In this document: positions 59,739-63,288 of the stretch, piece after piece
How the letters are laid out: each line of letters begins with the position of its first letter
How positions within the stretch are numbered: position 1 is the stretch's first letter
Source: a virus
Lineage: Duplodnaviria > Heunggongvirae > Uroviricota > Caudoviricetes
Length of the DNA: 64,000 bases
IMG/VR virus record: IMGVR_UViG_2609460060_000003
Location: 1 to 64,000 of that record
Strand: one strand, 5' to 3'
Notes under the pieces: generated by a model
The model's database searches: none
The model's input: only the letters and a program-made list of their open reading frames with translations
Told to the model about the DNA's origin: nothing
Position numbers and translations under genes: made by a program

Positions 59739-59984
59739 TTGGCAGAGCGTGTTGATGATGCAGAGCTGAGCATGAATCAGTTAGAAGCTCTCAAAGACAT
59801 GGCCATCGATAACATCAGAAAGCAGGCACAGGTCGTGAGCCAGGTATTTACAGGGAAGTGTCGTTACTGCAATGAATCGATTGAATCAGGCATTTATTGT
59901 GACGCTGAATGTGCGCAATGGCACAGGGAAGAGCAGGCCGAAAAACAGCGTAAATATGGCATGCGACCGGCAGGATTTGACTGA
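59739..59984 (+). CDS. TraR/DksA-type C4 zinc-finger protein
   Basis: CRYCNESIESGIYCDAEC; TTG start with GAGG RBS, alternative ATG at 59772. Confidence 0.5.
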   Translation: MAERVDDAELSMNQLEALKDMAIDNIRKQAQVVSQVFTGKCRYCNESIESGIYCDAECAQWHREEQAEKQRKYGMRPAGFD

Positions 59985-59986
59985 TT

Positions 59987-60571
59987 GTGTTGCGCTTTAC
60001 TGAGGAAGAGTTTCAGGCTTTTAGTGAGCGTCGAAATAAGGGGCGGTCCAGGCCAAAAACCAAAAAGGATCCATTCTTATCGCTTGCGCCGGTAAAAGAA
60101 GTTTCTCCACATGCGAAGGCACTTGCAGCACTGGCAAAGAACCCAGACCTGCGCGACGGAAATTGCGAGCACTTCGAGCAGGTTTTCATTTTTGATTACT
60201 TCGAACGCAAGCACCCTGACATCTATGAGCTGTTGCATGCAACGCCTAACGGAGGGAAACGTTCAAAAGCAACCGCCGGGAAAATGAAGGCTGAAGGGCA
60301 GAAAAAAGGTTATCCGGACATGAGTCTCGATAAAGCATGCGGTATTTATCACGGCATGCGAATTGAGCTTAAAGAACCAAATGGTAAAGCCCCGACGAAA
60401 GAGCAGATCGCCTGGATGCGCAGGCTTAGAGAGGAAGGTTACTACGTCGTTCTTGCGTATGGTGCAGAACAAGCGATAACCGCCATCCTGGAATACATAA
60501 GCCTTAAAAAGGGTGAGGCTATTGAGCATTGTATTGAACGGCGACAAGTGGTTGTATGCTGCTTAAAATAA
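59987..60571 (+). CDS. VRR-NUC domain nuclease
   Basis: GYPDMSLDKACGIYHGMRIELKEPNGK fits the PD-(D/E)xK VRR-NUC signature; GTG start 3 nt after the upstream stop. Confidence 0.55.
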   Translation: MLRFTEEEFQAFSERRNKGRSRPKTKKDPFLSLAPVKEVSPHAKALAALAKNPDLRDGNCEHFEQVFIFDYFERKHPDIYELLHATPNGGKRSKATAGKMKAEGQKKGYPDMSLDKACGIYHGMRIELKEPNGKAPTKEQIAWMRRLREEGYYVVLAYGAEQAITAILEYISLKKGEAIEHCIERRQVVVCCLK

Positions 60572-60590
60572 TAAATAAATTAGTGCACAT

Positions 60591-60788
60591 GTGCTCTTTG
60601 ATATAGCGCACATTAACATCGGGAGAATAATCGTGTCATTCAAGGTTAATTATGAATCGCTGGCATCGATCATGCCGCGTAATGAACAGGAAGCAGATGC
60701 TGTAGTGGACCCGGTAATCGCTGAAATGAATGCTCGCCTGGAGGCTGAATTTGCAGCTGAGAATGAACATACCACCCAGGGCGACTAG
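60591..60788 (+). CDS. Small acidic hypothetical protein
   Basis: 65 aa. Confidence 0.3.
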   Translation: MLFDIAHINIGRIIVSFKVNYESLASIMPRNEQEADAVVDPVIAEMNARLEAEFAAENEHTTQGD

Positions 60789-61392
60789 GACTGTTTTTTG
60801 TGTCGGTAGCGGTCCGTCACTCACTCGTGAGGACTGTGCTGCTATAGAAAAAACTGGCTGTTCAATCATTGCGGTTAACAATTCCTGGCTGATGTTCGAT
60901 GACATTTATGCCTTATACGCCGGTGATTTGTCATGGTGGAAGCAATACGGTTCCACCATACCGGGAGGGAGGTTCCGCAAAGTGACAGCCAACCTGGCGG
61001 CGGCGAAATCATTTTCGTTGGAGTACAGGCGATATTGTGGACCGGCGGAAGGGGTAAATAGCGGCGCGCAGGCTATCAGTCTGGCTGCTGAATCAGGGGC
61101 TGAAGTAGTGGTATTAGTCGGCTATGACTGTTCTCTGCAAAACGGCCTTCATTGGCATGGCGCGCACCCTCAAGCCCTACGGAATCCAACGCAGGTGTCT
61201 ATTTCAAAATGGCAACAGCAGTTCCTGGATACCCGCAAAAAACACGCAGATTTACATATTTTGAATGCAAGTAGGAGCAGTGCAATTCAATGTTTCCCAA
61301 GAATAAATTTAGAGGCAGTGATCGCGTTATTATCGTCGGCAGTGGCCCAAGCGCCGCAAACTTTGTTGCGCCGCGCGGAGTGCCGATTATAG
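60763..61392 (+). CDS. Hypothetical protein, paralogue 1 (VGSGPS...IAVN motif)
   Basis: N-terminal region paralogous to the next gene; 3' end overlaps it by ~100 nt. Confidence 0.4.
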   Translation: MNIPPRATRTVFCVGSGPSLTREDCAAIEKTGCSIIAVNNSWLMFDDIYALYAGDLSWWKQYGSTIPGGRFRKVTANLAAAKSFSLEYRRYCGPAEGVNSGAQAISLAAESGAEVVVLVGYDCSLQNGLHWHGAHPQALRNPTQVSISKWQQQFLDTRKKHADLHILNASRSSAIQCFPRINLEAVIALLSSAVAQAPQTLLRRAECRL

Positions 61393-61916
61393 CGGTCAAT
61401 GGGGCTATCGACTGGCTTAACCGCGCTTCTTATTTTTTCACACTTGATCCATCGCCAGACAATATGCGGCGCGTTGGTCGTGGCCGCCGTCGCCGTGGTG
61501 TTTGTTATTGCATGGCACTACCCGATGTTAAAGAACGTGAAGTCAGAGACGGCATTCTGTGCTTCCGTCGTGTGGCTGAACGCGGCACAGAGCCAAAAAA
61601 TACGAATTCTCCCGAGTGGTGGGCGTGGCGCTGGTCCGCACATTTCGGCCTTTGCGAAGATGAGAATGAAATTGCCAGCGGCAATAGTGCATATGGTGCT
61701 CTGAACCTGGCTTTCCATATCGGATTCAAACATGTAGCCCTGGTGGGCGTTGACGCTACGCAAGAACTACGCGTTCACTCCGGCGGCACGCCAAAAAATC
61801 TAAGTCACCTGCCTTTGTTATTCCAGTCTGCGCGTGAACAGATTGACGTTGTTTCATGCGGGAAAATGGGAGGTATTCCGCAGATGACTCTTAAAGAATG
61901 GCTGAAGAATACATGA
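61290..61916 (+). CDS. Hypothetical protein, paralogue 2 (IIVGSGPS...IAVN motif)
   Basis: 208 aa; shared N-terminal motif with paralogue 1. Confidence 0.45.
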
Positions 61917-62590
61917 TGGCACCCACAATTTATCACCGTATCGACGGTACCAAATACAGGAATGTCTGGGTTGTTGGTGATCTGCATGGTTGCTACACCA
62001 GACTGATGTCCGAACTCCATCGTGTGGATTTTGACCCGGCGCAGGATTTACTGATATCGGTCGGCGACCTTATCGATCGCGGTACTGAAAATGTCGAATC
62101 TCTGGAACTATTGCAGATGCCCTGGTTCAGGGCAGTAGTGGGGAACCATGAGCTGTTGATGCTCGATGCGTTAAGTCCTGATGGCAACGTGAATAACTGG
62201 CTAATGAATGGCGGACAATGGTTCTTCATGCTGGACACTGATCAGGAAATATTAGCCTGGGCGCTGGTGGAGCTGGTAAAGCGTCTGCCCTATATCATTG
62301 AGTTGAACACGGGGCAAGAAACTATCGTTATAGCCCATGCCGACTATCCGGATAATGAATACCAATTCGGTAAGGAGGTGCCGCTTTTCAACGTTGTCTG
62401 GGCGCGCGAGCGTATCAGTGATTCGATGGATGATATTGGTGGCGAAATTTCGGGCGCAGATCGTTTTATCTTTGGTCACACTCCGGTGAAAAGCCCGAAG
62501 ACATTCTGGAATCAGCAGTATATCGACACTGGTGCCGTATTTTGCGGAAACCTGACATTGATGAAAGTGAAAGGTGATGGTGCAGCATGA
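61898..62590 (+). CDS. Ser/Thr protein phosphatase (lambda PPase-like metallophosphatase)
   Basis: GDLHGC, GDLIDRG, GNHE motifs; close to the lambda phosphatase as recalled. Confidence 0.85.
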
Positions 62591-63288
62591 AGATTGCTTT
62601 AGTTTTTCGCTCTGGTGGTGACTATAACGCTTCCGATGTGCAGTGGCTGGTTAATCAACTGCCAAAAGACTATGAAATTATTTGCCTGACAGACCTGAAG
62701 TGTTTACATGTACCTGGCGTCAAAGTTATCCCATTGATCAACCAGTGGCAAAAGTGCCGTGGCTGGTGGGCGAAAATCGAGTTGTTCCGACCGGATATAA
62801 CCGATGATCTGTTCTATCTGGATTTGGACACGGTTATTGCCGGTGATATACGCCCAATCCTAGAGCATCCACCAACCAGCTTCACCATGCTTAGGGATTT
62901 TTACCATCCACAATATCGTGGCAGCGGTGCCCTGTGGATACCAAATAGTGTTAAAGCGCATATCTGGAGTTCATTCTGGCAAGATCCGGAAGGTTGGATT
63001 TCTCGTTGTGTCACTACTGAGTGCTGGGGTGACCAGGGGTTCTTACGAAAGGTTATGGGCGATGATACACCAGCATTTCAGGATCTGTATCCAGGATGGT
63101 TTGTAAGTTACAAGGCCGATGTTGTGGAACCTGGTTCAAAATATGCGAGCGCGCGTTACTCCAGGGGGAATGGGGCATTACCAAAAGACTGCCGAATAAT
63201 CTTTTTCCACGGCAAACCGCGACCTCGCGAAGTGTCAGAGGATTGGCTTCCCCTTATCAGCTCATTTTTTGAGCGAGAATCAGAATAA
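62587..63288 (+). CDS. Hypothetical protein (possible nucleotide-sugar transferase; DLD motif)
   Basis: 233 aa, ATG overlaps the upstream stop. Confidence 0.35.

Follow-up and report, generated by a model that had tools for sequence, protein, structure and literature searches.

The pmgL–pmgQ segment of bacteriophage P1: a probable mosaic of C1-repressed accessory modules that may include a virion glycosylation cassette

Introduction

Bacteriophage P1 carries seven genes, pmgL, pmgM, pmgN, pmgO, pmgP, ppp and pmgQ, that have been annotated since 2004 and are known not to be essential. Plating is normal when any of the seven is deleted, and CRISPR interference (CRISPRi) agrees on their dispensability for plaque formation in every case except pmgN (PMC10695390, citing Gonzales 2022). 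The main text of the paper on the P1 virion proteome mentions none of these proteins by name. In phages of a different kind, the mycobacteriophages, virions are glycosylated by phage-encoded glycosyltransferases, according to the work of Freeman et al. 2023 as cited in PMC12691614. Here, we analyse the pmgL–pmgQ segment within a 64,000-nucleotide stretch of Caudoviricetes DNA (positions 1 to 64,000 of IMG/VR record IMGVR_UViG_2609460060_000003, hereafter the window). Although nothing in the locus itself is new, we find that, taken as a whole, it is probably best explained as a mosaic of four C1-repressed accessory modules in P1, with the protein roles proposed below.

Results

Positions 59600–63400 of the window are 98.7% identical to bacteriophage P1 (AF234172, NC_005856) over their full length of 3801 bases and 97.9% identical to phage P7, and 19 P1-like records cover at least 80% of this query. 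All seven genes were recovered with near-identical sequence and in the same order as in P1; the genes, their overlaps and the operators (Op82, Op83, Op86a/b) are all the same as in AF234172, from which this stretch differs by an extra T at the 3′ end of pmgM and otherwise by point changes only. The region is the already annotated pmgL–pmgQ segment of bacteriophage P1 (Table 1), with the divergent tail/baseplate genes 26-25-7-24 to its left and pmgR-pmgS to its right; its P7 counterparts are upf81.0, upf81.2, hdmA to hdmD and ppp. The seven proteins all lack membrane segments, and an NCBIfam search returned a name for Ppp alone. An earlier sequence-only reading of the window had delimited the block exactly, 59739 being the start of pmgL and 63288 the stop of pmgQ, and nearly all of the sites and proteins that it listed stand; it had overlooked pmgN, Op83, Op86b, the terminator hairpin and the late promoter LP26.

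P1 regulatory features (operators and promoters) were taken from the GenBank annotation, and the whole window was searched for the 17-bp asymmetric C1 operator, allowing up to three mismatches to the P1 consensus ATTGCTCTAATAAATTT. Nine matches were observed against 0.24 expected by chance. With a position weight matrix (PWM) built from nine strong window sites, the operators at the ends of the block, Op82/O26 on the left and the Op86a–Op86b pair on the right, scored 21–24 bits; Op82/O26 and Op86a correspond to the operator-like sites between which the sequence-only reading had placed the block. Within it, a predicted sigma-70 promoter is annotated in both P1 and P7 alongside Op83/Oppp, between pmgM and pmgN. 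Op86a and Op86b are inverted relative to each other and enclose a hairpin that, together with its operator arms, has a computed RNA fold of −26.9 kcal/mol (z = −10 relative to shuffles) and that we read as the terminator of a pmgN–pmgQ unit. A further weak operator-like site lies at 53786–53802 on the minus strand (ATTGCATTAATAATCCT); at 13.6 bits, it is of about the strength of Op83 and does not rise above shuffled sequence.

The window was also searched with a late-promoter motif, AACAA(A/G)TGACT(A/T)-N4-TA(A/G)AAT, derived from the three annotated P1 promoters LPsit, LP23 and LP26 and allowing up to three mismatches. Seven copies were found where 0.29 were expected, all of them on the minus strand (12311, 19240, 27842, 38780, 44671, 57917 and 59622), with perfect copies at 38780, which is LP23 with identical sequence, and at 59622, which is LP26. 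LP26, the only canonical late promoter near the block, drives genes 26-25-7-24 leftwards, that is, away from pmgL, and no Lpa-dependent late promoter (−22 element AAxTGACTx, four bases, −10 element TAxAAT) was found on the plus strand between 59400 and 63400. The 'LPpmgL' of GenBank is the −22 element of LP26 in reverse reading, with four of nine positions fitting the canonical element by our count. Since the plus strand lacks a late motif and LP26 points away, the sequence lends no support to the 'late operon' of the sequence-only reading, and the operator and promoter annotated between pmgM and pmgN speak against a single transcription unit. The block looks like two C1-controlled units, pmgL–pmgM and pmgN–pmgQ, in line with its annotation, in which the second unit is the 'ppp operon'.

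The products of pmgO and pmgP yield only a short match to each other by BLAST. Their family profiles, however, align by hhalign over 163 columns (probability 97.9%, E 4e-13), which makes the two proteins distant paralogues; GSGPS and IAVN motifs are common to both, and the genes overlap by 103 nucleotides in different frames, bearing out the paralogous pair with a shared N-terminal motif and an overlap of about 100 nucleotides that had been noticed earlier. A frameshift as the origin of this overlap, which had been raised for checking, was rejected: both proteins are complete domains, with separate GSGPS...IAVN N-termini and separate families of homologues of about 200 amino acids, and overlaps of 94, 70, 40 and 11 nucleotides occur in relatives. 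PmgP is conserved from its first residues and PmgO has a conserved core up to about residue 205, with residues 1–16 unconserved and modelled at low confidence, such that its true start may be the ATG at 60763. There is no start codon past the pmgN stop, so pmgO begins at 60730 or 60763 and overlaps pmgN by 59 or 26 nucleotides. Homologues of PmgO and PmgP in many bacterial genomes now bear the name 'norphogenetic protein', a typo that goes back to the GenBank entry for P1 pmgM.

Sequence-only searches of the PDB with PmgO, PmgP and PmgQ returned nothing useful, and structure prediction was needed. The AlphaFold2 (AF2) model of PmgO (predicted local distance difference test, pLDDT, 86) matches the folds of Maf, the MptE HPPK and Cst-I, placing it in the same fold as the MptE-like/Maf proteins, and several homologues of PmgO and PmgP carry precomputed PF01973 matches. 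For PmgQ (pLDDT 94.5), the top Foldseek matches shown were overwhelmingly GT8 enzymes (Skp1 alpha-GalT, GlyE, glycogenin and LgtC; E 1e-8 to 1e-6, probability 1.0). The GT-A fold, DxD motif and C-terminal histidine metal ligand of the model are those of GT8 enzymes, and the DLD and H-G-x-P motifs (Table 1) are invariant in the family alignment, in line with the earlier call of a DLD-motif, transferase-like protein. From the predicted structure, we infer that PmgQ is a GT8-like retaining DxD glycosyltransferase.

Relatives of these three genes (O, P and Q below) recur together in many unrelated phages, most often directly behind the major capsid gene. They are contiguous, without ppp, in a Citrobacter rodentium lambdoid prophage (phage phiNP; lysis genes–O–P–Q–small terminase), a Pseudomonas prophage (major capsid–O–P–Q) and the divergent P1-like element L060 (M–O–P–Q), and an Ochrobactrum phage has the order capsid–adaptor–P–Q–head closure. 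HK97-like viral contigs carry capsid (major capsid protein, MCP)–(O)–Q–adaptor at six loci, the podovirus-like contigs L080 and L081 carry capsid (MCP)–unknown protein X–methyltransferase–Q, and the podovirus-like contig L078 has methyltransferase–Q–tail tubular proteins. An FkbM methyltransferase is found inside some cassettes. In several phages, the Q-like (GT8) and O-like (MptE-like) domains are fused in one polypeptide, and among viral structures PmgQ is matched best by proteins of 441–700 amino acids, two of them named 'MptE-like'. In a scan of viral contigs, at least 579 encoded a PmgQ relative. Phage D6 has ppp and lacks PmgQ; together with the occurrence of O-P-Q without ppp elsewhere, this indicates that the functional unit consists of the MptE-like protein or proteins and the GT8-like protein.

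Two further genes were noticed in cassette-bearing phages. In HK97-like phages, a small open reading frame (ORF) of 81–100 codons separates the capsid gene from the pmgO-like gene (L063:6298-6552, L075:1841-2086, L085:6326-6598, L006:5215-5517 and L067:1699-1998); its product has a C-terminal tail rich in Ser, Thr, Pro, Ala and Lys and may act as a glycan acceptor or be a head protein that binds DNA. Protein X is a conserved protein of about 200 amino acids and unknown family (L080:5394-6029 and L081:5794-6393, with a homologue at L083:5758-6384). Its motifs VVGSAPC, LVNGA and ...CGAPMDG line up with PmgO and PmgP; as a divergent MptE-like protein, however, it reached only 1–3% probability by hhalign, which is not significant.

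Upstream, PmgL matches phrog_54, 'DksA-like zinc finger' (E 2e-12); no Pfam model matched it. An exhaustive search yielded 26 relatives, and the family alignment shows DxxDxA at positions 3–8 (ExxDxA in P1) followed by an AIxxxR helix, that is, the TraR/DksA tip motif on the N-terminal helix. The best PDB match of the family profile is the F-plasmid TraR on RNA polymerase (5W1S; E 0.007, residues 1–46). Because the tip motif is conserved, the TTG start at 59739 is supported; the shorter start used in P7 would remove it. The zinc knuckle has the form C41-x2-C44-x9-C54-x3-C58, which departs from the canonical CxxC-x17-CxxC spacing; PF01258 was matched in none of 20 family members and the DUF2116 treble clef in seven of them. 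The 'TraR/DksA-type zinc finger' of the sequence-only reading thus holds for the N-terminal half, with its tip motif and TraR profile match, and fails as a canonical zinc finger. Growth of P1vir is reported to improve when the host is dksA-deficient, in a paper that makes no mention of a TraR-like protein encoded by P1 (PMC8198154); a TraR-like PmgL might bear on this improved growth without host DksA.

The nuclease call made from the sequence is borne out for PmgM, which matches the VRR-NUC structure 4QBL over residues 77–176 (E 5e-17), VRR-NUC core included, as well as phrog_5702; this VRR-NUC nuclease is probably of the Holliday-junction resolvase type. At 60529–60530, close to the 3′ end of pmgM, the window reads 'GAGCATTGTATTG' where P1 and P7 read 'GAGCATGTATTG'. 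The extra T shifts the last 12 or so codons, beyond the VRR-NUC core, and gives a protein of 194 amino acids rather than the 192 of P1; either strain variation or an error in sequencing could account for it.

Ppp matches the lambda phosphatase 1G5B over its entire length (E 5e-92), scores above the cut-off with Pfam Metallophos (E 7e-15) and has its signature motifs at residues 27, 56 and 82, so that the lambda-type Ser/Thr phosphatase recognised earlier is confirmed as a member of the PPP family. Its annotated ATG is probably five codons too far upstream: the ATG at 61913 is likelier, because it overlaps the stop of pmgP in an ATGA, as at the ppp/pmgQ junction, and because the alignment to lambda phosphatase starts at residue 11. 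The small gene pmgN would encode 65 amino acids if started at 60591. It scores as essential by CRISPRi (efficiency of plating 1.4e-2) and as non-essential by deletion, and knocking down pmgO, pmgP, ppp, pmgQ or even pmgR scores as non-essential, so polarity on downstream genes as the cause of the pmgN score is unsupported by the CRISPRi dataset. To the left of the block, the product of gene 25 (gp25, 'tail stability'; 57988–59205, minus strand) has a CxC...CxH pattern (CDCGRH...CKHVLH) that, judged by eye from the ORF translation, resembles a SWIM zinc finger.

Table 1 Features of the pmgL–pmgQ segment, in window coordinates.
Feature	Position	Strand	Description
Late promoter LP26	59622..59643	-	AACAAATGACTA-N4-TAGAAT; perfect motif match; annotated in AF234172
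C1 operator Op82/O26	59665..59681	-	ATTGCACTAATAATTTT; 2 mismatches; PWM 23.9 bits; annotated in P1 and P7
pmgL	59739..59984	+	81-aa TraR-like protein; TTG start, GAGG ribosome-binding site
pmgM	59987..60571	+	VRR-NUC (PD-(D/E)xK) nuclease, probably of Holliday-junction resolvase type; YPD at 109, ELK at 127
Weak C1 operator Op83/Oppp	60573..60589	-	TGTGCACTAATTTATTT; before pmgN; annotated in P1 and P7
pmgN	60633..60788	+	Small acidic protein, 51 aa from GTG, GGGAGA ribosome-binding site; phrog_2350 (unknown function)
pmgO	60730..61392	+	Predicted Maf/MptE-like (GT42-like) nucleotide-binding transferase domain
pmgP	61290..61916	+	Distant pmgO paralogue, same fold family, other frame (hhalign and family alignment)
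ppp	61898..62590	+	Lambda-type (NinI) Ser/Thr metallophosphatase; GDLHG, GDLIDRG, GNHE motifs
pmgQ	62587..63288	+	Predicted GT8-like GT-A glycosyltransferase; DxD D79-L80-D81; H208-G-x-P motif
C1 operator Op86a (OpmgRa)	63290..63306	+	3 mismatches; PWM 21.3 bits; annotated in P1
Predicted intrinsic terminator hairpin	63315..63342	+	11-bp hairpin then U-run; nested inside inverted Op86 pair
C1 operator Op86b (OpmgRb)	63339..63355	-	Ahead of pmgR; 2-3 mismatches; PWM 21.1 bits; annotated

Discussion

The results suggest that pmgL–pmgQ would be a mosaic of four separable accessory modules silenced by C1 in the prophage, rather than a single late operon. In this proposal, the TraR-like PmgL would bind the secondary channel of RNA polymerase and retune host transcription, and the junction-resolving PmgM would tidy branched replication and recombination intermediates. 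PmgO, PmgP and PmgQ would jointly form a cytoplasmic unit that builds and transfers a glycan, to which PmgN may also belong and into which Ppp would have been inserted independently in the P1 lineage. The most likely acceptor would be a virion (head) protein, so that the unit would decorate particles and yet not be required for plaque formation. Database labels such as 'putative morphogenetic function', 'norphogenetic protein' and 'alpha-2,3-sialyltransferase' hide what may be a coherent picture of the segment: a TraR-like polymerase factor, a junction nuclease, a phosphatase and a three-gene sugar-transferase cassette.

Virion-protein glycosylation is our favoured but unproven target for the cassette; it is favoured because the cassette is repeatedly close-packed inside head modules, because mycobacteriophages provide a precedent and because the genes are dispensable in P1. 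The mycobacteriophage glycosyltransferase genes are reportedly dispensable for growth as well. The stronger statement, that pmgO, pmgP and pmgQ represent in P1 a cassette that is widespread, so far in phages of Gram-negative hosts only, and that glycosylates the capsid or other virion proteins, is one that we put forward tentatively, as a possibility with clearly less than an even chance of being right.

A number of observations weigh against these assignments. The link between PmgL and TraR is marginal, given its E value and a zinc knuckle with non-TraR, treble-clef/DUF2116-like spacing. PmgM reaches 21.2 bits with Pfam VRR_NUC (PF08774), just under the cut-off of 23.8; PmgO and PmgP, at 22.6 and 20.9 bits, both fall under the cut-off of 34.6 for PF01973 (MptE-like/Maf), a fold that also houses pyrophosphokinases; and a Pfam search of PmgQ gave no hit, Glyco_transf_8 included. 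Op83 scores 13.2 bits with the PWM and ranks 11th in the window, against an average of 14.6 bits for the top site of shuffled sequence, so its status rests on annotation. As for the proposed target, no experiment shows a glycan on the virions of P1 or of any other cassette carrier, the P1 cassette is far from the capsid gene (gene 23) and behind C1-controlled rather than late promoters, and LgtC and Cst-I, the nearest relatives among characterised enzymes, have lipo-oligosaccharide as their substrate. Standalone PmgQ homologues also occur in moron-like positions: phage Chlobot has one beside int and lom/tail fibre, and a P2-like prophage has one behind its portal gene.

The last two of these points bear on the main and serious rival, namely that PmgO, PmgP and PmgQ remodel the host envelope during lytic growth. 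P1 uses the lipopolysaccharide (LPS) core as its receptor, and a modified LPS core or lipo-oligosaccharide would mask it and spare the progeny from adsorbing to debris or to infected cells. The presence of lipo-oligosaccharide/LPS enzymes, namely LgtC (GT8) and the sialyltransferase Cst-I, among the structural matches, and the classic lysogenic-conversion positions of the standalone homologues, speak for this explanation. Most cassettes with an MptE-like partner, however, sit inside head modules among close-packed or overlapping neighbours and would be made only minutes before lysis, the P1 genes are repressed by C1 and hence not expressed from the prophage, and both membrane segments and flippase-type partner genes are lacking; on balance, we regard envelope remodelling as unlikely, if still a reading to be reckoned with. 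It is much less probable that PmgO and PmgP are ATP-dependent pyrophosphokinases of the MptE/thiamine-pyrophosphokinase type that act as a pair with Ppp against host signalling or defence. The position of ppp inside the P1 cassette fits such a pairing, yet ppp is missing from the cassette outside the P1 lineage, and the role is made less likely by the constant partner, at times a fusion partner, which is a GT8 glycosyltransferase, sometimes joined by an FkbM methyltransferase. DNA glycosylation was set aside, by inference only: the loci examined hold no genes of a hydroxymethyl-pyrimidine pathway, and the usual place of the cassette is the head module, not the replication module.

Two readings of the segment as a whole were also considered. 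The sequence-only reading, in which one late operon serves host takeover and nucleic-acid processing, draws on the co-directional, tightly packed genes between operators, on the nuclease, phosphatase and TraR-like factor, and on the predicted late promoter LPpmgL in GenBank. The functional theme suits those three proteins and overlooks the glycosyltransferase-type cassette of pmgO, pmgP and pmgQ, which make up three of the seven genes and are linked to head modules elsewhere. With no late-promoter motif on the plus strand, LPpmgL reduced to a reversed LP26 element and an internal operator and promoter annotated before pmgN, we consider this reading improbable. Its corollary, that the genes are not concerned with morphogenesis, stands in so far as the proteins are not virion building blocks, and may be too strong for pmgO, pmgP and pmgQ in view of their position in head modules of other phages. 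That same position, and the location of the genes between tail/baseplate genes and pmgR, essential for head completion, are what speaks for the GenBank reading of a 'putative morphogenetic function', according to which the proteins are required for building heads or tails (in P7, pmgN–pmgQ are hdmA to hdmD, 'head morphogenesis'). The lack of a plaquing defect in single deletions already largely refutes it. Together with the absence of the proteins from the main text of the virion-proteome paper, this dispensability leaves an essential assembly role unsupported, and the folds throughout are those of enzymes and regulators, with no structural-protein folds; we hold this to be the least credible of the readings and very improbable indeed.

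The only part of the segment with some potential for novelty is the likely glycosylation role of the cassette, which hundreds of viral contigs carry adjacent to the major capsid gene, in some cases fused into one protein. Our literature searches returned no paper on this cassette, nor any on capsid glycosylation in phages of Gram-negative hosts. If virion glycosylation were true, no such system would have been known before beyond the actinobacteriophages; single-gene knockouts of P1 have already been made, and the phage would offer an easy model for the effects of particle glycans on stability, adsorption and immune recognition of therapeutic phages.

The segment can finally be set against the systems that it most resembles. 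PmgL aligns with the F-plasmid TraR (5W1S, 6N57) in its DxxDxA-type tip, its AIxxIR helix and the first CxxC, and differs in the second half of its zinc site, x9-C-x3-C in place of the x17-C-x2-C of TraR, and in the Glu that replaces the first Asp of the tip in P1. The core of PmgM aligns with VRR-NUC 4QBL, to which it adds a basic N-terminal region of about 75 residues, and Ppp is similar to the lambda NinI phosphatase (1G5B) along its full length. Compared with the Maf flagellin glycosyltransferases, PF01973 MptE-like proteins and GT42 sialyltransferases (5MU5, 8SD5, 2P56), PmgO and PmgP are single domains of about 200 amino acids that remain below the Pfam cut-off and have invariant motifs of their own, such as HWHGxH in PmgO. 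PmgQ has the GT-A fold, invariant DxD and C-terminal H-G-x-P of the GT8 enzymes (glycogenin, LgtC, GlyE, Skp1 alpha-GalT), at an identity of only 12–18% and a TM-score of about 0.55–0.6, and without their Pfam Glyco_transf_8 match. With mycobacteriophage virion glycosylation, the cassette shares phage-encoded, predicted cytoplasmic glycosyltransferases and, in most carriers other than P1, a place inside the structural gene block; the enzyme families (here Maf/MptE-like and GT8-like) and the Gram-negative hosts differ, and the likeness is one of proposed function only.

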